64,000 nt of DNA from assembly GCF_030384885.1 (NCBI RefSeq), contig NZ_CP128613.1. One strand, written 5' to 3'. Below are positions 8,382 to 48,301 of the stretch, one piece after another. Both the position numbers and the translations under genes were made by a program. The notes beneath the pieces are model-generated. The model saw only the letters and a list, made by a program, of their open reading frames with translations. It did not search any database and had not been told where the DNA came from. Numbering within the stretch: the first letter of the stretch is position 1; each line of letters starts with the position of its first letter. Source of the stretch: Escherichia coli. Its GTDB lineage: Bacteria; Pseudomonadota; Gammaproteobacteria; Enterobacterales; Enterobacteriaceae.

Positions 8382-8485
8382 TGCCATATGCGGCGCGAAC
8401 GCCTTACACGGCCTACAAAAGTTTGCAAATTCAATAAATTGCAGAATTCATGTAGGCCTGATAAGCGAAGCGCATCAGGCATTTT
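8382..8485. repeat. REP/BIME palindromic cluster
   Basis: gccatatgcggcgcgaacgccttacacggcctac ... gtaggcctgataagcgaagcgcatcaggc between sbp and pfkA. Confidence 0.75.
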
Positions 8486-13459: not shown

Positions 13460-13545
<86 letters not shown>

Positions 13546-23872: not shown

Positions 23873-24421
23873 ATGGCTGCTCTTACTGCAAGCTGTATTG
23901 CCTTGAATATTCAGGGCAATAGCGATTATTCCATTCTGAGACAGCTGGCTACAATAGCATGTCAAAATGGTTTCATTACCGATTCTCATACGTTTCTGCA
24001 GACCCTACTGCGACGCGAAAAAATGCACTCCACAGGATTTGGTTCTGGCATTGCCGTACCACACGGTAAAAGAGCCTGCGTTAAACTACCCTTCGTGTTA
24101 TTCGCCCGCAAAGCACAGGCCATTAACTGGAAAGCCAGCGACGGCTAAGGCGAAAACCTGATTGTTAATCGTCTCGCCATCCCACATGGCTGGAGCGAAC
24201 AGGAACGCCGTTTTCGTGGATTTTTTATTACCCTCGCCCAACCGCTCGAGGTGAATAACGAAGTCATTAACCATGTGTTGATCGCCTGTGCCGCCGCTGA
24301 TGCGCGCCACGAGTTGAAAATATTCAGCTCTCTGGCAAGCGTACTATGTACGTATCCGGCGGAGACTATTGCCGGGCTAACGGGATATGAAGGGTGTATA
24401 GCGTTACTTCGTCAGGAGTGA
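23873..24421 (+). pseudogene. frvA: PTS EIIA-type (frv-like) remnant interrupted by an in-frame TAA
   Basis: One frame reads ...FGSGIAVPHGKRACV...ASDG-stop(24146-24148)-GENLIVNRLAIPHGWSEQ... to 24421; two IPHG-type EIIA motifs; lies where frvABXR sits in K-12, which spans several kb. Confidence 0.5.
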
Positions 24422-25788: not shown

Positions 25789-28095
25789 CTACATCCCGTA
25801 GCGTTCGGCAATAGTGGCATGTTTCTCTTCATTCGCCCCGGCTTCTTTGGCGAGACGCCACCAGCACAACGGATGTTCCCAGTCAGCGGTCAATTCGTGC
25901 AAGGTCTTATCGATATCACCTTTAGAAATTGAACGCGGCGCACTGATAACAAAGTAGAATGCGGGAAGTGGCTGCGCATCTTCACCCTGATGACTGTCCG
26001 TTAACGTATAGTCGTCATTACTGTTGCTCCAGTAGTACCAGTTTCGTTCACGGAGCGCCTCACGGAAAGTATTAAACTCTTCTTCACCAGGCATGACACC
26101 TTCGCAGAACCAGGACTCGCCGTATTCGGTCGGGATAATGGTGTTCAGGCACCCATAAAGCGGAGTGAAATTCTTCCGTTCTTCCTCATCCTCTGGTTGG
26201 GTGTTCAATATTTCTGCATCGAATACCACAACTTCATCAACATGTTGCGGATAATCGGTCCGGTAAGTTGGCTCAATGATCCTTGCTGTTACCGGCCCAA
26301 TACGTTGAGCATAGTAATAGCGGTATTCATAATTTTCCCGGAAGCGGATGTTTAACAGCCCCCATTTTTCGTCAATAAAACCTTCGCCTTCCGTGAGCTC
26401 GATTTCCAGTTCAGCAGCAATAGCACGAACCAAATCCCATTGTTGCAGGATGCTGGCGGTCGCCATGATATCCCACTGGAGATTGCGAATATCTTCTTCA
26501 CGGCTAATCATCAGTTGCTGCAATTGTTGTAAATAATCCAGCTGTCGATCCCAGGCTTCCTGTTTTTGTGCTGCCCAAGAGCACATGCGATAAACGCCAA
26601 CCCACTCACGCCCTTTTTCGTGTTGCAGCAACTGTTGCCCAATCGACTCCAGTTCACTCCAGTCTTCCTGTTGGTTGAGCACTCGCGCACGGAACCACAA
26701 GGCCATATGTAGCAGCCCCGCCTGTTCATACTGCTTCGCCAGGTGCTCAATGGTTTGCAGATCGTCACGGTGGAGCAATAAATCCAACAGATCGAAGCAA
26801 AGACCATTATCTTCCTGGATGTGGCTTTCGACGTAGCGTTGCAGAAGTTCAATCGACTCATCAATCGCATTACAGGCGTTTAACGCATTGACCAGTTTGC
26901 CCAGCAATTCCGCATCATCTGGCGCGTTCAGGTAAGCGCGGCGGAATGTTTCGACGTCTTTTTCTGGATCTGGTTGCGTTTCTTCATCGCTATTTTCAGG
27001 TACTTCTACAACCGGACGAGCAAGCAACTCTGCTTCTTTGGCGGCGATTTTTTCACTCAGTTCGAGAAACTCACGATCAACCCCCAGTAACACGCGTAAT
27101 TTTGGCATGTGTCGCTGGGCCAGTTTCATCGCTATTTTGGCAACCCAGACGGATTCACGCTCCAGCGCCAGGGTAATTTGCAGTTTCGCCAGATCAACCA
27201 CTTTGCGGTGCGCTCCGGCCTGCGAGCGGTGCTCCAGCATTTTTTGGATGATGCGCGCCAGTTGCCAGTTGTTTCTTTGTGGATGACGGGGAAGTAACAC
27301 AGTAATGATTTTCAGCCATGACCCCCATGAATGGGGAGTCAGATCTGACCAACGCGGTAATTCCTCCCAGACTTCTTCGTCCTGCCCGCATAACGCCATG
27401 ATGTACAGTTTTTTGAGGTGATTACTAATGCGGTCGCGGCCCCAGTAATCATTGGCTTCTGTCAGCTCATCAATCAGTATGCGTGCTTCATCATAACGCT
27501 GAAGTTCAATCAGAATATCGGCACGAGTATAAAGTAATGCATCAATATCATCTTCCCCGGCTGCTTTAACTGCGTCGATTTGTCGATCCAGATAAGCCAA
27601 TGCCTCCTCTATTCTTTTGGAATCTATCAGTGCACTGGCATATTCAGTGGACAAACACTGAAAACAGCTCCAGGTCGGATCAATCCGCGCGATGGTTTCT
27701 TCACATACCGCCATACGTTCATTCGCCCAGCCAGGTGCATCAATATTTTCGTAGCAGGCGGATAAATCCTGGGTAACGCAGATAGATTGTGGGCAATCTT
27801 TTGTCTCTTCCCGGTGCGCTTTTTCAAACAGCGCCACTACGTCAGGCAGTACTTTTTCACCTTCTTCGCGGTTAGTCAGGCGATGGCGCATTTCCCAGTG
27901 ACCAATAAAAATCTCCAGCCACGGATTTTTTGCCACCTGGGTAAGTGCTTTTACTTCAGGTAACAGCGAATCGCACTTTTCCATTTGCAGGTGCATAACG
28001 CCTTCCGAATAATCATCGATAAGTTGCGGAATATATTCCTGCCCGGCATCGCGTAACTCCTTAGTATATTTGTGATACCACTCCCATATATCCAT
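25789..28095 (-). CDS. hypothetical 768-aa acidic, predominantly alpha-helical protein, partner of the Hsp90-like ATPase
   Basis: Long uninterrupted ORF; ATG lies 1 nt after the stop of the upstream gene with RBS aagga; sequence is helix-rich and repeat-like; no catalytic motif recognised. Confidence 0.8.
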   Translation of the reverse strand: MDIWEWYHKYTKELRDAGQEYIPQLIDDYSEGVMHLQMEKCDSLLPEVKALTQVAKNPWLEIFIGHWEMRHRLTNREEGEKVLPDVVALFEKAHREETKDCPQSICVTQDLSACYENIDAPGWANERMAVCEETIARIDPTWSCFQCLSTEYASALIDSKRIEEALAYLDRQIDAVKAAGEDDIDALLYTRADILIELQRYDEARILIDELTEANDYWGRDRISNHLKKLYIMALCGQDEEVWEELPRWSDLTPHSWGSWLKIITVLLPRHPQRNNWQLARIIQKMLEHRSQAGAHRKVVDLAKLQITLALERESVWVAKIAMKLAQRHMPKLRVLLGVDREFLELSEKIAAKEAELLARPVVEVPENSDEETQPDPEKDVETFRRAYLNAPDDAELLGKLVNALNACNAIDESIELLQRYVESHIQEDNGLCFDLLDLLLHRDDLQTIEHLAKQYEQAGLLHMALWFRARVLNQQEDWSELESIGQQLLQHEKGREWVGVYRMCSWAAQKQEAWDRQLDYLQQLQQLMISREEDIRNLQWDIMATASILQQWDLVRAIAAELEIELTEGEGFIDEKWGLLNIRFRENYEYRYYYAQRIGPVTARIIEPTYRTDYPQHVDEVVVFDAEILNTQPEDEEERKNFTPLYGCLNTIIPTEYGESWFCEGVMPGEEEFNTFREALRERNWYYWSNSNDDYTLTDSHQGEDAQPLPAFYFVISAPRSISKGDIDKTLHELTADWEHPLCWWRLAKEAGANEEKHATIAERYGM

Positions 28096-28096
28096 T

Positions 28097-29932
28097 TTAT
28101 TTTCCTTGATTAATTAAGACAGGAATAACCTGAGTAAAATCTTCCAGTGCCTGATGTAAATCCCACTGCTGTTCTTTATTACCACTGGAGCACAAAATCA
28201 CTTTCAGCGATTTTAATAACCGTAATGCTGCCGCTGGCTGTTGATGGTGTTGTAATGCCGTCACCAGTTGCATGACACAGGGGTTATTAAGATTGATATA
28301 CAGACTTGAAGTTTTAGTCTTTTGGATTTGCGAGGTAAATTGCCGCGCCAGCATTAACGCTGCGGTGCTGATGCGTTTATCTGCGTCATCCTGTTCGAGA
28401 ATTTGTTTTAATTCTGCTTCGCGGTCTGGCGTGACCACGAGCGGTAAAACCGCTGGTTCGAAGCGGGAGATAATTAATTGCTCGCCGTCGCAAAGATGCT
28501 CTTCCAGATAAGCAACCTGCTCTTCAGGTAATTCTGCCAGGCTGAACAACTGCTCATTACCCGTTTGCGTACCGACTTCGATAATCCGGCAGTGATATAA
28601 CAGCGCCCAACGACGTAAAAATGGCACCACCGCATAACGATCGCCACGGGCTACGGGCCGTTGCAGAATATGAAACAACATCTCTTCAAAACCGCCGTCG
28701 CGGCTTAACAGAATATGAATGCTGTTATTAACGCGTAAATCCTTCGCCAGCAACGCCCCTTTTGACGTTGGCACCTGCAAGCGATCTTTGAGCAAATCAA
28801 ACAGACGGTCATCACATAATGCCGCACCGAGCAACGCTTCGTTGTGGCGCATTAATACACGCCGCCAGATTTCTGGCTGATTTTGTGCGAGATCGGACAA
28901 ACCAGAAATCAGCGCCTCTTTTAACGCCTCCTGCACCGCAACCCAGGTTTCGTCCCGCTGGAGATCTTCCCGGCTCGCCGTAGGCGTTAGTTTCGATGAC
29001 TCAATCACGCCGCCAATAAATCCGGCCCAGGGAGGTAACAACTCACGCGCTTCATCATCCAGTAACATACCGCGCAAAAACAGCGACAGGTTGCGGTTAT
29101 CGCTGGTGCCGTAGGTTGCGCCATCCTGAATCCATAAAATCCCGACCGCATCGCTCATACCCGCTGGCACCACCGGAATGGTGCAAATCGGTTCAAAGGA
29201 GGATTCAAACTGGGCGGCAAAGGCGAGATTTTTACGCTGCACCAGCGCGCGGTGTATGGTTACGCCTTCGGGGGCAACTTCACGCCACGGTGGTTGAAGT
29301 TTATTTACCGGCTCGCTGGCATCGCCGACATAGACCGGTTCGTGCAGCAATATGCAGTAGCGGGAAAGAACGCGGTTCAGCAGATTATTACTCGCCAGAT
29401 GGCTGTACTCTTCTTTGAGCGTCAGAATCACCTGCGTTCCCGGCGCCGAGGACTGATGCGGCGTAACGGTATATTTTTGCCCGTCGGTAGAGTGGTATTT
29501 CCAGCTCTGATCCGGCGTTTGCCAGGATGTGGTCAACACCGTGACCTCTTTCGCCAACACAAAGGCCGACAAAAAACCGAGGCCGAACATACCAATTAAA
29601 CCGGTGTTGTCATCCTGCTGGCGCAACATTCGGGTATAACCCACGCCCACTGTCGCCAGGAAGCCGTGAATTTCGCTTTCTGTCAGACCCGCACCGGTAT
29701 CGGTAATGGTGATGGTGGACTTCGCCACGTCTGCCACTACACGAATTTGGTTATCCTTTGGCGCATCGGGCTGCTCAATCCTGCGGCGAACGATCGCATC
29801 ATGGCCGTTCTGCACCAGCTCGCGCACGGCAACTACGGGAGTGGAGTAAAGATGCTTACTGAGCACCTCAATTAAACCGTTTAAATTAACTTCTGTAGAA
29901 TATGAACTGCCAGGTAACTGTAATGTACTCAT
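28097..29932 (-). CDS. Hsp90/HtpG-like GHKL ATPase paralog (611 aa)
   Basis: Bergerat-fold motifs: N-box RELVQNGHDA, G1 box ITITDTGAGLT, G2 box GMFGLGFLSAFVLAKEVTV; length close to HtpG; in-frame stop two codons upstream of the ATG. Confidence 0.85.
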   Translation of the reverse strand: MSTLQLPGSSYSTEVNLNGLIEVLSKHLYSTPVVAVRELVQNGHDAIVRRRIEQPDAPKDNQIRVVADVAKSTITITDTGAGLTESEIHGFLATVGVGYTRMLRQQDDNTGLIGMFGLGFLSAFVLAKEVTVLTTSWQTPDQSWKYHSTDGQKYTVTPHQSSAPGTQVILTLKEEYSHLASNNLLNRVLSRYCILLHEPVYVGDASEPVNKLQPPWREVAPEGVTIHRALVQRKNLAFAAQFESSFEPICTIPVVPAGMSDAVGILWIQDGATYGTSDNRNLSLFLRGMLLDDEARELLPPWAGFIGGVIESSKLTPTASREDLQRDETWVAVQEALKEALISGLSDLAQNQPEIWRRVLMRHNEALLGAALCDDRLFDLLKDRLQVPTSKGALLAKDLRVNNSIHILLSRDGGFEEMLFHILQRPVARGDRYAVVPFLRRWALLYHCRIIEVGTQTGNEQLFSLAELPEEQVAYLEEHLCDGEQLIISRFEPAVLPLVVTPDREAELKQILEQDDADKRISTAALMLARQFTSQIQKTKTSSLYINLNNPCVMQLVTALQHHQQPAAALRLLKSLKVILCSSGNKEQQWDLHQALEDFTQVIPVLINQGK

Positions 29933-30243: not shown

Positions 30244-31080
30244 TTAATTATGAATCAAACGCTGCGGATGGGTATAAACCGTTGCCCGACCCGGCTTACA
30301 AAAGCCCACCAGCGTCAAATTACAGCGCTCAGCCACTTCTACGGCAAGCGTGGTCGCGGCAGACACCGCAAACAAAATTTCTACGCCGCACATCGCTGAC
30401 TTTTGCACCATTTCATAACTGGCACGACTGGAAACCAGCACCGCACCTTGATGCCAGCTTTCCCCTTCTTGTGACCGGCGGCCTAACAGTTTATCCAGCG
30501 CCACATGGCGACCCACGTCTTCATGCCCGCCTACCAGTTCGCCAGATGGCAACATCCAGGCAGCGGCGTGAGTACAACCAGTCAGTTGCCCCACTGGCTG
30601 GAAATCATTGAGATGGCGTAATGCATCATCCAGTTTGTTGAGATCAAATGTCTGAGTGAACGGCAGCGGCTGCACCGGTTTACCGATGTCATTAAGTTGC
30701 TCCACGCCGCACACGCCACATCCCGTACGTCCCGCCAGTGCCCGACGACGCTCCTTCAACCCCATAAAGCGGCGGCTGGAAAGCTCAATTTGCACTTCCA
30801 GACCATTACAGGAAGGAACGACATCCATGCCAAAGATATCGCGCGGACTTTCGATAATCCCCTCGGAAAGCGAAAAACCGAGCGCAAAGTATTCAAGGTC
30901 TTTGGGCGACGCCATCATCACCACATGCGAAATGCCGTTGTAGACCAGCGCAACGGGAACCTCTTCCGCCACCTCATCTAACCGTGGGTGTTGTAAATCG
31001 TCACGCCGCCATAACTCAATTTGACGAACACCTGTGACATTTGTCACATTTTTGATTTCTTTTTGCTGTGTTTTTTTCAC
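30244..31080 (-). CDS. fdhD: formate dehydrogenase sulfurtransferase/accessory protein
   Basis: 278-aa ORF; recognised FdhD sequence (GRTGCGVCG motif); divergent from fdoG. Confidence 0.92.
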
Positions 31081-31273
31081 TTTCTATTAACCGGATAAGA
31101 ACACACACACCAACATTATGGTATTCTGTTACAAACCCTTCCTGGATGGAGGGAAATTGAGCCAATTCTGGACCTTTGCGGCCCCTTCCGCAAAGAAAAA
31201 TAACTCCCACTCCCTGCACACGCAGCAAGCGAATGTAAATGGGACGTGACAATGTCGAAACAAGGAGCAATCC

Positions 31274-34200
31274 ATGCAGGTCAGCAGAAGGCAGTTCTTT
31301 AAGATCTGCGCTGGCGGTATGGCAGGCACCACGGCAGCGGCACTGGGTTTTGCACCCAGCGTAGCACTCGCGGAAACCCGGCAGTATAAACTGCTGCGCA
31401 CCCGCGAAACCCGTAATACCTGCACCTATTGTTCCGTAGGCTGTGGGCTGTTGATGTACAGCCTCGGTGACGGAGCAAAAAACGCCAAAGCATCTATCTT
31501 CCATATCGAAGGTGACCCGGATCACCCGGTCAACCGCGGTGCACTTTGTCCGAAAGGCGCTGGCCTGGTGGATTTCATCCACTCCGAAAGCCGTCTGAAG
31601 TTCCCGGAATACCGTGCCCCTGGTTCTGATAAATGGCAGCAAATCAGTTGGGAAGAAGCGTTTGATCGCATCGCCAAATTGATGAAAGAAGACCGCGATG
31701 CTAACTACATTGCGCAAAACGCCGAAGGCGTGACTGTTAACCGCTGGCTCTCCACCGGAATGCTGTGTGCTTCCGCGTCGAGTAACGAAACCGGCTATTT
31801 AACGCAAAAATTCTCCCGCGCGCTGGGTATGCTCGCGGTCGACAACCAGGCGCGTGTCTGACACGGACCAACGGTAGCAAGTCTTGCTCCAACATTTGGT
31901 CGCGGTGCGATGACCAACCACTGGGTCGACATCAAGAACGCCAACCTCGTCGTGGTGATGGGCGGTAACGCCGCTGAAGCTCACCCGGTCGGGTTCCGCT
32001 GGGCGATGGAAGCCAAAATTCACAACGGCGCGAAGCTGATTGTGATCGATCCTCGCTTTACGCGTACGGCGGCGGTGGCTGACTACTATGCCCCTATTCG
32101 TTCCGGTACTGACATTGCTTTCCTGTCAGGCGTATTGCTGTACCTGCTGAACAATGAAAAATTCAACCGCGAATACACCGAAGCCTATACCAACGCCAGC
32201 CTGATCGTGCGTGAGGATTACGGCTTTGAAGATGGCCTGTTCACCGGCTACGACGCGGAAAAACGCAAGTACGATAAATCCAGCTGGACCTACGAGCTGG
32301 ACGAAAACGGCTTCGCCAAACGCGATACCACGCTGCAACATCCGCGCTGCGTGTGGAACTTGCTGAAACAGCACGTTTCCCGTTATACGCCAGATGTGGT
32401 TGAAAACATCTGTGGCACGCCGAAAGACGCGTTCCTGAAAGTCTGCGAATACATCGCAGAGACCAGTGCTCACGATAAAACTGCCTCGTTCCTTTACGCG
32501 CTCGGCTGGACGCAACACTCCGTTGGTGCGCAGAACATTCGTACGATGGCGATGATCCAGCTACTGCTCGGCAATATGGGGATGGCAGGCGGCGGCGTTA
32601 ACGCCCTGCGCGGTCACTCCAACATTCAGGGGCTGACGGACCTGGGGCTGCTGTCGCAGAGCCTGCCAGGTTACATGACGCTGCCAAGCGAGAAGCAGAC
32701 CGATCTGCAAACCTACCTTGCCGCCAATACGCCGAAACCGCTGCTGGAAGGCCAGGTTAACTACTGGGGCAATTACCCGAAATTCTTCGTCTCCATGATG
32801 AAGGCCTTCTTTGGTGATAAAGCGACGGCAGAAAACAGCTGGGGCTTTGACTGGTTGCCGAAGTGGGATAAAGGCTACGACGTCCTGCAATACTTCGAGA
32901 TGATGAAAGAGGGCAAGGTCAATGGCTATATCTGCCAGGGCTTTAACCCTGTTGCCTCATTCCCGAACAAAAACAAAGTGATCGGTTGTCTGTCGAAACT
33001 GAAGTTCCTCGTCACTATCGACCCGCTGAACACTGAAACCTCTAACTTCTGGCAGAACCACGGTGAGCTGAACGAAGTGGACTCGTCGAAGATCCAGACC
33101 GAAGTGTTCCGTCTGCCATCGACCTGCTTCGCGGAAGAGAACGGTTCAATCGTTAACTCCGGTCGCTGGTTGCAGTGGCACTGGAAAGGTGCGGACGCCC
33201 CAGGGATTGCGCTGACTGATGGCGAGATCCTCTCCGGTATCTTCCTGCGCTTGCGCAAGATGTACGCCGAACAGGGTGGCGCGAACCCGGACCAGGTGCT
33301 GAACATGACCTGGAACTACGCCATCCCGCATGAGCCGAAGTCGGAAGAAGTGGCGATGGAGAGCAACGGTAAGGCGCTGGCCGATATTACCGATCCGGCA
33401 ACCGGGGCGGTTATCGTCAAGAAAGGCCAACAACTTAGCTCGTTCGCCCAACTGCGCGATGACGGTACCACCTCCTGTGGCTGCTGGATTTTCGCCGGTA
33501 GCTGGACGCCAGAGGGCAACCAGATGGCACGCCGTGATAACGCCGATCCGTCTGGCCTCGGTAACACGCTGGGCTGGGCATGGGCATGGCCGCTTAACCG
33601 CCGCATTCTGTATAACCGCGCCTCCGCAGATCCGCAGGGTAACCCGTGGGATCCGAAGCGTCAGTTGCTGAAATGGGACGGCACCAAATGGACCGGCTGG
33701 GATATTCCGGACTACAGCGCAGCGCCTCCGGGCAGTGGCGTCGGGCCGTTTATCATGCAGCAGGAAGGCATGGGGCGTCTGTTTGCCCTCGATAAGATGG
33801 CGGAAGGTCCGTTCCCGGAACACTACGAGCCGTTTGAAACGCCGCTGGGAACTAACCCACTGCATCCAAACGTTATCTCGAACCCGGCGGCGCGAATCTT
33901 TAAAGACGATGCCGAAGCATTGGGTAAAGCCGATAAGTTCCCGTATGTCGGAACCACCTATCGTCTGACCGAGCACTTCCACTACTGGACCAAACACGCG
34001 CTGTTGAATGCGATTTTGCAGCCAGAGCAGTTTGTGGAAATCGGGGAGTCGCTGGCGAATAAACTTGGCATTGCCCAGGGCGATACCGTGAAAGTCTCCT
34101 CCAACCGTGGCTATATCAAAGCCAAAGCGGTGGTGACCAAACGTATTCGTACGCTAAAAGCGAACGGCAAAGATATCGATACCATCGGTATTCCGATTCA

Positions 34201-34324
34201 CTGGGGCTATGAAGGTGTTGCGAAAAAAGGCTTTATTGCCAACACGTTAACGCCATTCGTTGGTGATGCGAACACGCAGACGCCGGAGTTTAAGTCCTTC
34301 CTTGTGAATGTGGAAAAGGTGTAA
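31274..34324 (+). CDS. fdoG: formate dehydrogenase-O catalytic subunit (selenoprotein; in-frame UGA at 31859-31861)
   Basis: ORFs 31274-31861 and 31910-34324 share one frame and are joined through TGA (..DNQARV-U-HGPTVASLAPTFG..); twin-arginine signal MQVSRRQFFKICAGG; 1016 codons. Confidence 0.93.
31859..31910 (+). promoter_or_regulatory. UGA(Sec) codon plus downstream SECIS-type stem-loop
   Basis: Directly 3' of the in-frame UGA, as bacterial SECIS elements are; the fold was not computed. Confidence 0.6.
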
Positions 34325-34336
34325 CGGAGACGACAT

Positions 34337-35239
34337 ATGGCTTATCAATCTCAAGATATCATTCGTCGTTCCGCGACTAACGGTCTGACCCCCGCGCCTC
34401 AGGCGCGGGACTTCCAGGAAGAAGTGGCGAAACTCATCGACGTCACCACCTGTATCGGCTGTAAAGCCTGTCAGGTGGCGTGTTCAGAGTGGAACGACAT
34501 TCGCGATACCGTCGGCAATAACATTGGGGTGTACGACAACCCCAATGATTTAAGCGCCAAATCGTGGACGGTAATGCGCTTCTCGGAAGTGGAGCAGAAC
34601 GACAAACTGGAATGGCTGATCCGCAAAGACGGCTGTATGCACTGTTCCGATCCAGGCTGCCTGAAAGCGTGCCCGGCGGAAGGAGCAATTATTCAGTATG
34701 CCAACGGTATCGTCGACTTCCAGTCCGAGCAGTGCATCGGCTGCGGTTATTGCATTGCGGGCTGTCCGTTCGACATTCCGCGCCTCAACCCGGAAGACAA
34801 CCGCGTCTACAAATGTACACTGTGCGTTGACCGCGTGGTGGTTGGGCAAGAACCGGCCTGTGTGAAAACCTGCCCGACGGGGGCGATTCACTTCGGTACG
34901 AAAGAGTCGATGAAAACGCTGGCGAGCGAGCGCGTGGCTGAGCTGAAAACCCGTGGTTACGACAATGCGGGTCTGTACGATCCGGCAGGCGTGGGTGGTA
35001 CGCATGTTATGTACGTGCTGCACCATGCTGACAAGCCAAATCTGTATCATGGCTTGCCGGAGAACCCGGAAATCAGCGAAACCGTGAAGTTCTGGAAAGG
35101 CATCTGGAAACCGCTCGCGGCTGTTGGCTTTGCGGCTACCTTTGCGGCCAGTATCTTCCACTACGTGGGTGTCGGTCCGAACCGTGCGGATGAGGAAGAG
35201 AATAATCTGCACGAAGAGAAAGACGAGGAGCGCAAATGA
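34337..35239 (+). CDS. fdoH: formate dehydrogenase-O Fe-S subunit
   Basis: 300-aa ORF with multiple CxxCxxCxxxCP ferredoxin motifs. Confidence 0.95.
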
Positions 35240-35871
35240 AACGACGTGACACCATCGTGCGCTACACCGCGCCGGAACGTATCAACCACTGGATCACCGC
35301 CTTCTGCTTCATCCTGGCGGCGGTGAGCGGGCTGGGCTTTTTGTTCCCTTCCTTCAACTGGTTGATGCAAATCATGGGCACACCGCAGCTGGCGCGCATT
35401 CTGCACCCGTTTGTCGGCGTGGTTATGTTTGCCTCGTTCATCATCATGTTTTTCCGTTACTGGCATCACAACCTAATCAATCGGGATGATATCTTTTGGG
35501 CGAAGAATATTCGTAAGATCGTCGTCAACGAGGAAGTAGGTGACACCGGGCGTTATAACTTCGGTCAGAAATGCGTTTTCTGGGCGGCGATTATTTTCCT
35601 GGTCCTGCTGCTGGTGAGCGGTGTGATTATCTGGCGTCCTTATTTTGCGCCTGCTTTCTCAATCCCGGTGATCCGATTCGCGTTAATGCTGCATTCATTT
35701 GCCGCAGTGGCGTTAATTGTGGTTATCATGGTGCATATCTACGCCGCCCTTTGGGTGAAAGGCACGATTACCGCCATGGTGGAAGGATGGGTTACCAGCG
35801 CCTGGGCGAAGAAACATCACCCACGCTGGTACCGTGAGGTCCGCAAGACAACGGAAAAGAAAGCTGAATGA
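35236..35871 (+). CDS. fdoI: formate dehydrogenase-O cytochrome b556 subunit
   Basis: 211-aa membrane ORF; 4-nt overlap with fdoH. Confidence 0.93.
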
Positions 35872-36797
35872 GTATTCGCATAATCCCGCAAGATGAGCTG
35901 GGTTCGAGCGAGAAACGTACGGCGGATATGATTCCGCCGTTATTGTTCCCTCGGCTCAAAAATTTATACAACCGCCGCGCTGAACGTCTGCGCGAGCTGG
36001 CAGAAAATAATCCGCTGGGTGATTACCTGCGTTTTGCTGCGCTTATCGCCCACGCCCAGGAAGTGGTGCTGTACGACCATCCGCTGGAGATGGATCTGAC
36101 CGCGCGCATTAAAGAAGCCAGCGCACAAGGCAAGCCACCGCTGGATATTCACGTTTTGCCGCGTGATAAGCACTGGCAAAAGCTGCTGATGGCAATGATT
36201 GCTGAGCTGAAACCTGAAATGAGCGGCCCGGCGCTGGCAGTGATTGAGAATCTGGAGAAGGCATCAAGCCAGGAGCTGGAAGATATGGCCAGCGCACTGT
36301 TTGCCTCTGATTTCTCGTCCGTCAGCAGCGATAAAGCGCCGTTTATCTGGGCTGCACTGTCACTCTACTGGGCGCAGATGGCCAATCTGATCCCGGGCAA
36401 AGCCCGCGCTGAATACGGCGAACAACGTCAATATTGCCCGGTTTGTGGTTCTATGCCGGTGTCCAGTATGGTGCAAATTGGCACCACTCAGGGTCTGCGT
36501 TACCTGCACTGCAACCTGTGTGAAACTGAATGGCACGTAGTGCGCGTAAAATGCAGCAACTGTGAACAGAGCGGCAAACTGCATTACTGGTCGCTGGATG
36601 ACGAACAGGCCGCGATTAAAGCCGAAAGCTGCGATGACTGCGGCACTTACCTGAAGATTCTTTATCAGGAAAAAGAGCCGAAAGTTGAAGCCGTGGCAGA
36701 TGACCTCGCCTCTCTGGTACTGGATGCGCGAATGGAGCAAGAAGGCTACGCCCGCAGTTCCATTAACCCGTTCCTGTTTCCGGGTGAAGGGGAGTAA
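35868..36797 (+). CDS. fdhE: formate dehydrogenase formation protein
   Basis: 309-aa ORF with CxxC pairs; 4-nt overlap with fdoI. Confidence 0.93.
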
Positions 36798-36979
36798 TCT
36801 CTGACGTTTTCCGGGTGGCGCAGGTCGCCCGGATTACAGTTGATAGGGTATGACGACACCATCTCTCGTATTCCGCGTTACCCATTCAAGACCATGCTGT
36901 TAGTGCCTGTTTGGCCTCATTCTTCCCGCCAACACATCGATAAGGTTATTGGTATGTCACTGATGACAAGCGTAAGATT

Positions 36980-37080
36980 GCCTGATGCGCTGCGCTTATC
37001 AGGCCTACCAATAAACTGCAATATGTTGAATTTGCACGACTTTGTAGGCAGGATAAGGCGTTCACGCCGCATCCGGCATG
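36980..37080. repeat. REP/BIME palindromic cluster
   Basis: gcctgatgcgctgcgcttatcaggcctac ... gtaggcaggataaggcgttcacgccgcatccggcatg after fdhE. Confidence 0.8.
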
Positions 37081-37127
37081 AACAACTCGCACGTTGTCAG
37101 CAATCTGATTGATATCATTTTTTCCCA

Positions 37128-45727: not shown

Positions 45728-46320
45728 AACACCTTCGCGAAATAGTCCGGGATGGTGGTTTTATCTTTCACCAGAATGCTGGTAATGCCTAGCTGATTAG
45801 CTCCTTCTATATTATCGGCGTTATCGTCGAAAAAGACCGTATCGCTGGGTGAAAAACCTTCCGCCTGCAAAACATGCTGGTAAATTCGTGCTTCAGGTTT
45901 GCGCATCCCCAGATCTTGTGACAGATAGATATGGTCAGCAGCATCACGAATTTCCGGGTATTCCTCCGGCCAGAAGGTGGTATGCAGGCGGTTGGTATTG
46001 GAAAGCACCACCACACGATGACCCTGCTCACGCAGTTTATGCATGATGGCGATCACTTCCGGGCGCAGCGCGACAAACACCGCCTGCCAGCCGTGGGAAA
46101 ACTGCTCATAGCTTAGCGGTAGAGCCATCTCATGACACAGCGCCTCTGCGAACGCTTCGTCGCTAATTTCCCCACGCTCATGCTGATGAAACGGCTCGCC
46201 CATGTGGAAACTCTTCTTAAGCGTAGCCAGGGGAACACGCGTTAAATCGCTCCAGGCTCCCAGCACACGGTTAAAGTCGATATCGACAATCACATTACCT
46301 AAATCAAAGATATAGAGCAT
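45721..46320 (-). CDS. yihX: alpha-D-glucose-1-phosphate phosphatase (HAD family)
   Basis: ORF 45721-46341; start at [16 protein letters not shown] (199 aa); HAD motif DxGxV. Confidence 0.9.
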
Positions 46321-46418
46321 TTTTGCCTCCTTTCGCGCCACAAGAAATTAACTGTAGCGGGAAAGGATGGGTTTGGCTATGTGGTCAGGTATGAAGCAAG
46401 GTCAACGGTCACAAAATT

Positions 46419-47204
46419 CTACGCGTCTTCCTGGGGAAGGATGATTTCAATTTGGCTGTCTTGTAAGCGTGATTTTAGCGCAGCGGGCGGCAGCTCGTCG
46501 GTAAAGAGCGCAGTGACCTGTGCCACGTTACCAATTTCAACCGCCGCCGAAGTATGATACTTAGTGTGATCGGCGACCAGCAGAATATTTCTCGCGTGCG
46601 CCATCATCGTTTTCACCACGTTAGCTTCGTTTACATCAAACTCCATCAACGCGCCATCGCTCTCAATCGCCCCAACGCTTGTTACCAGATAATCAGCCCG
46701 AAAATCGGCCACAAAGGAAGCCGCTGAAGGGCCAATGATCCCGCTATTATGAGAGCGCAACGTACCGCCGGGCACCATCACTTCAAAGCGCGGGTTGTGG
46801 TACAGAATATGCGCCACACGCAGGCTGTTCGTGATTATCCGCAAATGATTATGGTTAAGTAACGCCCGGGCGACATGTTCGACAGTCGTACCGATGGTGA
46901 TAAATATTGTCGATCCATCAGGAATATAGTCTGCCACCGCTTCGGCAATCGCTTTTTTCTCTTCAGTTTGCGAAACCTCACGCTGTTCGAACGCCGTATT
47001 AACGACGCTGGAGGCCCGACCCGCGCCACCGTGATGGCGCGTGATCAGCCCTTGCTCGCTTAATTTACGAATATCCCGGCGGACCGTCTGCGTGGAAACA
47101 TCCAGCAGATTTGCCAGCTCATCAATATTCATATACCCACGCTCGGCGATCAGCATGAGGAGTTGGTCGTGCCGCGGGTTACCGGTCAGTTCGGTAAGGC
47201 TCAT
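46419..47204 (-). CDS. yihW: DeoR-family repressor of the sulfoquinovose cluster
   Basis: ORF 46419-47228; start at MSLTELTGNPRHDQ (261 aa). Confidence 0.9.
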   Translation of the reverse strand: MSLTELTGNPRHDQLLMLIAERGYMNIDELANLLDVSTQTVRRDIRKLSEQGLITRHHGGAGRASSVVNTAFEQREVSQTEEKKAIAEAVADYIPDGSTIFITIGTTVEHVARALLNHNHLRIITNSLRVAHILYHNPRFEVMVPGGTLRSHNSGIIGPSAASFVADFRADYLVTSVGAIESDGALMEFDVNEANVVKTMMAHARNILLVADHTKYHTSAAVEIGNVAQVTALFTDELPPAALKSRLQDSQIEIILPQEDA

Positions 47205-47237
47205 GAAAATTCCTCGAAAAACCATCACCCTGGCATT

Positions 47238-48134
47238 TTATACAAAAAGTGACAAAAAAGATCGGGTTTGATCACAGTCAGGGATCCCGGCACGCCCACC
47301 GGGACGCGTGCATTTTAACGCCGCCACACCGCTGGCAAAGCGGACGGAATCCGCTAAATCTCCACCTGTTGCCAGCGCCACCGCCAATGCGCCGTGAAAA
47401 ACATCGCCCGCACCGGTAGTATCTACCACATCAACTTTGAAAGCTGGCTGATGCTGCCGCCCGCCATTCTCCAGCCAGTCACAGCCTGCACTGCCCTGAG
47501 TAACATAGACATGTCCATTTGTGAGCGTTTGTGCCTGTTTTAGGGCACTCGCCATCTCTTTCACGCCCGTTAGCCGCGCCAGACCCGGTTCTGAAAAAGC
47601 AGCATGATCGCTTAACGCCACCAGCTCACTGATATCCTGCGGCGTAATATCACCGTCCAGCACGGTCATCACGCCCACCTGCCGCGCCAGAGTGAAGGCT
47701 TTTTTTGCGCCGTCGTGCCAGCGTACATCTGCCAGCACCACGTCCCACTGAGAGAAATCAATTTCCTCCAACCACTCTGCGTCAGGCAGCAGGTCCGGGC
47801 TGGGATAGTTAATGATGATTCGCTCGCCTTTGGCATCCACCATGATGGCGGATTGCGAAGATTTCGCCTGGTTATACCGCTTGGTGTAACGGGTGTTAAC
47901 GCCCCAGGATTCCAGCTCTGCCAGCAGGCTGTTTCCCGTGTCGTCGTCACCGACGCGACCAATAAAATCGACCTGCGCACCCAGTCTGGCCGCCGCAACT
48001 GCTGCTGTAGCCGCTGGCCCGCCGCCAACTTCCGTATAATTTTTCGCCACGTATTTACCGATCTCCGTCGGCAACCCTTCCACGTAATAGATGCGATCCA
48101 TCACGGTAATTCCTACACAAGCAACACGAATCAT
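47238..48134 (-). CDS. yihV: 6-deoxy-6-sulfofructose kinase
   Basis: ORF 47238-48140; start at MIRVACVGITVMD (298 aa); ribokinase-family motifs. Confidence 0.9.
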   Translation of the reverse strand: MIRVACVGITVMDRIYYVEGLPTEIGKYVAKNYTEVGGGPAATAAVAAARLGAQVDFIGRVGDDDTGNSLLAELESWGVNTRYTKRYNQAKSSQSAIMVDAKGERIIINYPSPDLLPDAEWLEEIDFSQWDVVLADVRWHDGAKKAFTLARQVGVMTVLDGDITPQDISELVALSDHAAFSEPGLARLTGVKEMASALKQAQTLTNGHVYVTQGSAGCDWLENGGRQHQPAFKVDVVDTTGAGDVFHGALAVALATGGDLADSVRFASGVAALKCTRPGGRAGIPDCDQTRSFLSLFV

Positions 48135-48301
48135 GGTCATTCCTTAAGCATTTTGGGATGCGTTCATTTTAATTTCACCAATTGTTTAAAAAGTGACGGC
48201 TGTCAATTTTTTGACGATAAATTACAAATACGATCAAAAACAGACAAGCAAGGCATGTCATAAATGACAAAAAGTGACATCACTGTATTCAGGAGAGGGT
48301 T

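Follow-up and report, generated by a model that had tools for sequence, protein, structure and literature searches.

FdoG is one of the three textbook selenoproteins of Escherichia coli. Here, we describe an in-frame UGA codon in fdoG, and the mRNA hairpin next to it, in a 64-kb stretch of E. coli chromosomal DNA (64,000 nucleotides of contig NZ_CP128613.1; hereafter the window), and compare both with the best described systems of this kind. All three formate dehydrogenases of E. coli are known to be selenoproteins, and their activity is lost in selC mutants (PMC3160892). In such genes, SelB carrying Sec-tRNA(Sec), the tRNA for selenocysteine (Sec), binds a selenocysteine insertion sequence (SECIS) and decodes the adjacent UGA (PMC10778597). 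The minimal E. coli SECIS has been described as an upper stem-loop lying 11 nt from the UGA, in which U17, G23 and U24 are conserved and U17 and G23 contact SelB (PMC8659212); a 17-nt upper hairpin was reported to be sufficient for SelB binding. With regard to FdoG of strain K-12, mass spectrometry has shown Sec and never cysteine at position 196, and selC mutants, which lack tRNA(Sec), terminate translation at codon 196 (PMC3636253).

On the basis of current results, we consider, with a probability of roughly 97%, that positions 31274-34324 of the window hold one intact gene, fdoG, encoding the molybdo-selenoprotein catalytic subunit of the respiratory formate dehydrogenase-O, and that its codon 196, a UGA, is recoded as Sec. 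The reading frame, the gene identity, the match and anatomy of the SECIS, the conservation at the RNA level and the sel genes of the nearest complete genome were all computed here. The features of the gene are as follows (Tat, twin-arginine translocation; MFE, minimum free energy):

31262-31267, plus strand: Shine-Dalgarno-like AAGGAG, 6 nt 5' of the fdoG ATG, read from the sequence
31274-34324, plus strand: fdoG, catalytic (alpha) subunit of formate dehydrogenase-O (frame, 99.8% identity to K-12 FdoG, TIGR01553, Pfam and RefSeq)
31274-31372, plus strand: predicted Tat signal peptide of 33 amino acids, MQVSRRQFFK...SVALA (SRRQFFK motif, hydrophobic stretch and ALA)
31856-31914, plus strand: bacterial SECIS element (SelB-binding mRNA hairpin) inside the coding sequence (Rfam RF01989, SECIS_3)
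31859-31861, plus strand: UGA codon 196, read as selenocysteine, active-site residue (aligned with the Sec of 1KQF chain A and with the K-12 counterparts)
31873-31890, plus strand: minimal upper hairpin of the SECIS, nt 15-32 with the U of the UGA as nt 1 (MFE fold and Rfam consensus structure agree)

Counted from the ATG at 31274, the TGA at 31859-31861 is codon 196 of the same frame. This frame comprises 1016 codons including Sec196, has the TGA as its sole internal stop and ends with TAA at 34322-34324; translation gives the protein context LAVDNQARV-U-HGPTVASLAPTFGRGAMTNHW (DNQARV-U-HGPTVASL). A mechanical list of open reading frames (ORFs) contains the gene as two same-frame pieces, 31274-31861 (195 amino acids) and 31910-34324 (804 amino acids from the first ATG). 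It should be noted that the downstream frame is already open at 31862, position 31910 being merely the first ATG past the TGA, and that the 820 codons 3' of the TGA contain no further stop. The NCBIfam model for the formate dehydrogenase alpha subunit, TIGR01553 (1009 positions), aligns with the first ORF at positions 1-194 and with the downstream frame at 196-1009, and therefore the TGA falls on the single skipped column. Crystallized FdnG (1KQF) could be aligned end to end (residues 1-1015, 1903 bits), with its Sec (shown as X) opposite the TGA. The Pfam Molybdopterin domain is divided by the TGA, with profile positions 1-67 in the first ORF (28.8 bits) and 97-300 in the second (71.7 bits). 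Molybdop_Fe4S4 (63.2 bits) and Molydop_binding (60.2 bits) were also found, and according to Pfam the product has the domain set of a molybdenum bis-molybdopterin guanine dinucleotide (Mo-bis-MGD) oxidoreductase with an N-terminal [4Fe-4S] motif. At the amino-acid level, it shares 99.8% identity with K-12 FdoG (b3894; 1015 of 1017 positions, with A483T and K689S as the sole substitutions) and 77.0% with K-12 FdnG.

Directly at the UGA, the Rfam model SECIS_3 matched in full length (positions 1-59 of 59) with 84.3 bits (gathering score 63, E = 2e-19), which was the strongest RNA-family match of the Rfam scan across the entire window. The upper hairpin, GG-U(bulge)-AGCAA-GUC-UUGCU-CC with the fold ((.(((((...))))))), begins at nt 15, that is, 11 nt past the UGA. 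All three SelB determinants are unpaired, U17 (31875) being bulged and G23 (31881) and U24 (31882) lying in the apical loop.

The comparison of fdoG with its paralog fdnG revealed a very uneven distribution of nucleotide differences. Overall DNA identity is 74.9%, and identity at third codon positions is 56%. The longest stretch without any difference has 71 nt (gene positions 583-653, window 31856-31926); it starts 3 nt 5' of the UGA and includes the Rfam match, and the runner-up in the gene has 37 nt. Synonymous differences between the two genes abound in the codons up to 194 and from 218 onward but are absent from codons 195-217 (0.56^19, or about 2e-5). The UGA and the next 57 nt are identical in the window, K-12 fdoG and K-12 fdnG. 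A single in-frame TGA is present in each of K-12 fdoG, fdnG and fdhF, and it is codon 196 in both fdoG and fdnG. Within the species, the window differs from K-12 fdoG at 72 positions, none of them within gene positions 500-720 (about 100 nt on either side of the UGA; P of about 0.005). Of 5,433 matching E. coli records, 5,424 have the 100 nt around the UGA with an identity of 99% or more, and a match was present in 5,425 of 5,426 genomes. For the whole-gene region (3.3 kb), identity is 100% to NZ_CP027579.1 and 95-99% to almost every other complete E. coli genome. As judged by these comparisons, the element is under RNA-level (synonymous-site) constraint.

The genes for Sec synthesis and insertion were located by walking NZ_CP027579.1 (strain 2013C-4282), the complete genome nearest to the window, which differs from it at 66 positions in 64 kb; the window therefore stems from a strain very closely related to 2013C-4282. 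In the 64-kb window itself, ARAGORN found no tRNA and the annotation contains no sel gene. All four genes, selA, selB, selC and selD, are intact in NZ_CP027579.1, and fdoG is annotated there as an uninterrupted coding sequence at matching coordinates:

NZ_CP027579.1 710067-711110: selD, annotated intact coding sequence
NZ_CP027579.1 3659412-3659506: selC, tRNA-Sec, annotated, with the anticodon tca by ARAGORN
NZ_CP027579.1 3734666-3737898: selA and selB, annotated intact coding sequences

These data can be set beside an earlier reading made from the DNA letters (the sequence-only reading). Its description of two same-frame ORFs split by TGA in a QARV-U-HGPT context agrees with the sequence, the ORF list and the translation. 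The name fdoG that it used is upheld by the identity to K-12 FdoG, by the synteny of fdhD with fdoGHI-fdhE and by a model for FdoI (both described below), and its view of the UGA as Sec recoding, not as two genes or a pseudogene, by the SECIS_3 score and the alignments to TIGR01553 and 1KQF. It had also proposed a look for selABCD elsewhere in the genome, and all four genes are present in NZ_CP027579.1. As regards the two observations that it named as contrary to its view, the lack of a SECIS and the lack of sel genes, a SECIS was matched and selA, selB, selC and selD are all present in NZ_CP027579.1.

Several points weigh against the Sec interpretation and should be considered together. First, the folding of the region 3' of the UGA, proposed as a check by the sequence-only reading, gave a hairpin of the right shape with an energy that does not discriminate: its MFE is -14.6 kcal/mol, compared with a mean of -13.1 kcal/mol for shuffled sequences (z = -0.61), and equally good folds came from 59 of 200 shuffles. 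The Rfam consensus structure evaluates to a mere -7.2 kcal/mol. The hairpin is not markedly more stable than its composition predicts, and stability is not a defining feature of the SECIS family; thermodynamic folding was set aside as a SECIS test, and the covariance model and comparative data were used instead. Second, local gene conversion, beyond selection at the RNA level, might in principle have contributed to the perfect identity of fdoG and fdnG. Third, the evidence on the sel genes comes from a proxy, NZ_CP027579.1, and not from the genome of the window, and the support for Sec insertion in this strain is computational. Finally, neither Tat model reached its cut-off on the first 40 residues (PF10518, 8.9 bits against 22.7; TIGR01409, 10.7 against 16.7).

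Three other explanations were weighed. One is that the UGA is read by a standard near-cognate tRNA (Trp or Cys) and not by Sec-tRNA(Sec), the downstream conservation being due solely to protein constraint or to conversion between the paralogs fdoG and fdnG. A UGA followed by C, as here, is a leaky termination context, which counts for such read-through, as do the conserved active-site residues encoded by the SECIS region (HGPTVASLAPTFGRGAMTNHW) and a hairpin no stabler than its shuffles. However, protein constraint cannot explain 23 codons without a synonymous difference when third-position identity elsewhere is 56%, the covariance model scores structure as well as sequence, and U17, G23 and U24 are placed exactly where SelB requires them. 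Together with the mass spectrometry of residue 196, at which cysteine was never found, and the termination there in the absence of selC (PMC3636253), these observations make non-Sec read-through extremely unlikely.

Another explanation is that fdoG is a pseudogene, the TGA being a nonsense mutation and the 195-residue fragment the sole product. Naive ORF calling indeed yields pieces of 195 and 804 amino acids, and selC mutants do stop at codon 196 (PMC3636253). On the other hand, the TGA stands at the known Sec position of 1KQF and recurs at codon 196 of both K-12 fdoG and K-12 fdnG, its surroundings of 100 nt are nearly invariant in the E. coli records given above, a SECIS scoring above the Rfam gathering threshold lies directly 3' of it, the 820 stop-free downstream codons are 99.8% conserved, and the nearest complete genome has intact sel genes. 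Moreover, full-length FdoG containing selenium has already been demonstrated in K-12, whose protein is 99.8% identical. We thus regard the pseudogene as very improbable. The idea of two adjacent same-frame genes, a small Tat-exported iron-sulfur protein followed by a larger molybdopterin protein from the ATG at 31910, is practically negligible: both pieces do occur in the mechanical ORF list, the second with an ATG, but one profile (TIGR01553) and one crystal structure (1KQF) span them unbroken, the TGA interrupts the Pfam Molybdopterin domain, RefSeq has a single coding sequence, and the ATG at 31910 lies inside the SECIS and is preceded by 16 conserved codons (HGPTVASLAPTFGRGA).

With recoding of codon 196 to Sec as the favored interpretation, Sec insertion, SelB binding and Tat export are transferred to this gene from the K-12 literature or inferred, and expression of fdoG may be pictured as follows. 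As the ribosome nears codon 196, the SECIS (31856-31914) would fold just 3' of the UGA, and its upper stem-loop (31873-31890), with the U17 bulge and the loop bases G23 and U24, would bind the C-terminal domain of SelB. SelB would then compete with release factor 2 (RF2) at the UGA and deliver Sec-tRNA(Sec) there; this tRNA, the product of selC with the anticodon UCA, would be made by SelA using selenophosphate from SelD. The pre-protein would carry an N-terminal twin-arginine signal and acquire Mo-bis-MGD and the [4Fe-4S] cluster with the assistance of FdhD and FdhE. After cofactor insertion, folded FdoG is expected to be exported to the periplasmic face, where it would work with FdoH and FdoI.

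With regard to the signal peptide, the N-terminus (MQVSRRQFFKICAGGMAGTTAAALGFAPSVALA) contains a twin-arginine motif and aligns with residues 1-33 of FdnG in 1KQF. FdoG and FdnG have been described as having typical Tat signal peptides, with FdhD and FdhE as maturation factors (PMC10609526). The Tat models mentioned above remained below their cut-offs, and therefore the claim of a Tat signal, which the sequence-only reading had also made, rests on the SRRQFFK motif and the literature.

The extent of the fdoG/fdnG identity deserves a separate comment. The 71-nt block takes in the lower stem and about 12 nt past the Rfam model, and it exceeds the 17-nt upper hairpin. It seems doubtful that this extended identity reflects an added constraint (ribosome pacing or RF2 competition at the UGA, or co-regulation of the two mRNAs by SelB occupancy) or recurrent gene conversion that holds both SECIS elements to one sequence; simple purifying selection on the SelB site is the alternative. 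Gene conversion and ordinary selection on the full stem are the likely reasons why the identity outruns the minimal SelB hairpin.

The genes around fdoG allowed us to distinguish it from fdnG. Synteny is as in K-12, with fdhD divergent and followed by fdoG-fdoH-fdoI-fdhE. For the gamma subunit, the FdoI model NF007924 scored 453 bits (above its cut-off of 341), whereas the FdnI model NF007558 scored 243.6 bits (below its cut-off of 339). The neighboring genes are:

30244-31080, minus strand: fdhD, accessory sulfurtransferase, divergent from fdoG (TIGR00129, 338 bits; RefSeq)
34337-35239, plus strand: fdoH, iron-sulfur (beta) subunit (TIGR01582, 478.7 bits; RefSeq)
35236-35871, plus strand: fdoI, cytochrome b556 (gamma) subunit (NF007924, FdoI, 453 bits)
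35868-36797, plus strand: fdhE, accessory protein (NF002925, 603 bits; RefSeq)

RefSeq, annotated by the Prokaryotic Genome Annotation Pipeline (PGAP), has a single coding sequence at exactly 31274-34324 (WP_015953878.1), which carries no pseudogene flag and is labeled 'fdnG'. The gene name fdoG is correct, and the RefSeq 'fdnG' is a generic family label. The PGAP name 'fdnG: formate dehydrogenase-N subunit alpha' was observed on the fdoG ortholog in all E. coli RefSeq records among the matches listed, including NZ_CP027579.1, because the equivalog hidden Markov model TIGR01553 cannot separate the two paralogs; the neighbors in those annotations are named correctly as fdoH and fdoI.

As for fdnG itself, the linear 299-kb 'plasmid' pZYS9073-A (NZ_CP159530.1, 190033-204129) carries the chromosomal block narZ-narU-yddG-fdnGHI-yddM-adhP-maeA. 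This record is probably a chromosome fragment mislabeled as a plasmid, which would account for the few 'plasmid' matches of the SECIS query. A mobile plasmid-borne fdnG was considered and rejected, the inspected example, pZYS9073-A, being most likely a chromosome fragment.

Upstream of the fdoG coding region, the Rfam model of the FdoG-1 5' untranslated region thermometer (RF02778) matched at 31105-31303, in the spacer between fdhD and fdoG and the beginning of fdoG, with 32 bits, short of its gathering score (50). The alignment is good in the 3' half, around the Shine-Dalgarno sequence and the ATG, but not in the 5' half. Other Rfam matches, all above the gathering score, were to ES036/CssrF and naRNA4/CssrE at 8418-8459 (plus strand), 13464-13541 (plus strand), 37001-37043 (minus strand) and 36944-37083. 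They lie in intergenic spacers, one of them just 3' of fdhE, and we take them to be elements of the repetitive extragenic palindromic (REP) type.

Several further features were observed in the window. A two-gene cassette on the minus strand (25789-29932) separates yiiG from fdhD, where K-12 has just 152 bp. It encodes a 768-residue protein with tetratricopeptide repeats and a 611-residue GHKL/HSP90-like ATPase (Pfam HATPase_c_3, 37.5 bits; HSP90, 33.1 bits; TPR_19, 32.6 bits), and PADLOC gave a weak match to TmtA (22.7 bits). At a coverage of at least 80%, the cassette was present in 254 of 5,426 complete E. coli genomes, always on the chromosome and with copies 80-99% identical, and enteropathogenic E. 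coli E2348/69 has one. It is an uncharacterized accessory module that is possibly related to defense. Between rhaM and yiiG (23873-24421), all that is left of the K-12 frvABXR operon is a pair of short pseudogene remnants, one from the N-terminal part of a fructose IIA subunit of a phosphotransferase system and one from the C-terminal part of frvR, which indicates an internal deletion. The interval 38600-44300, 3' of yiiE/yiiF and before fabY, contains small hypothetical genes, a NadS-family gene, an alpha/beta hydrolase, a transposase and a truncated hypothetical gene, and looks like a small accessory or mobile-element-scarred island. Finally, 59 of the 66 mismatches to NZ_CP027579.1 cluster in 4 kb at 44206-48249, from a transposase remnant through fabY, dtd, yihY and yihX, with seven in the rest of the 64 kb; this segment looks like a recombination patch.

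The finding on fdoG is right but not new: the codon is the Sec196 of the textbooks, its element is identical to that of K-12, and no new biology is involved. A gene caller unaware of Sec would report ORFs of 195 and 804 amino acids or a pseudogene, whereas the correct product has 1016 residues with U196. The relevance for automated annotation that had been pointed out earlier thus holds for such a caller, which would split fdoG, and not for RefSeq/PGAP, which already annotates one coding sequence. The practical weight is a matter of annotation hygiene only, as standard pipelines keep the coding sequence intact, though under the name 'fdnG'.

Among the known systems, the dissected prototype is the SECIS of fdhF (Sec140, FDH-H), which shares with that of fdoG a UGA followed by CACGG, a hairpin from nt 15, the bulged U17 and the loop bases G23 and U24 (PMC8659212), as well as a common GGU...GUCU...CC frame. 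The two differ in the upper stem, with A18-U30 in fdoG and U18-A29 in fdhF (a compensatory swap), and fdoG has one extra base pair there and a predicted loop of 3 nt compared with 4 nt in fdhF. The lower-stem sequence is also different, and the FdhF protein is cytoplasmic (PMC10609526). Closer to fdoG is its paralog fdnG (b1474, formate dehydrogenase-N, 1KQF), with a Tat-type N-terminus, Sec196 and the 71 identical nt over the UGA and the SECIS; in contrast, it has its own locus, yddG-fdnGHI-yddM, and encodes the nitrate-inducible enzyme (name of 1KQF; PMC3160892). K-12 fdoG (b3894) is the same gene, with a DNA identity of 97.6% and an identical UGA position, SECIS and operon context. It differs only by strain-level polymorphism, the two-gene cassette that the lineage of the window has between fdhD and yiiG lying outside the operon.

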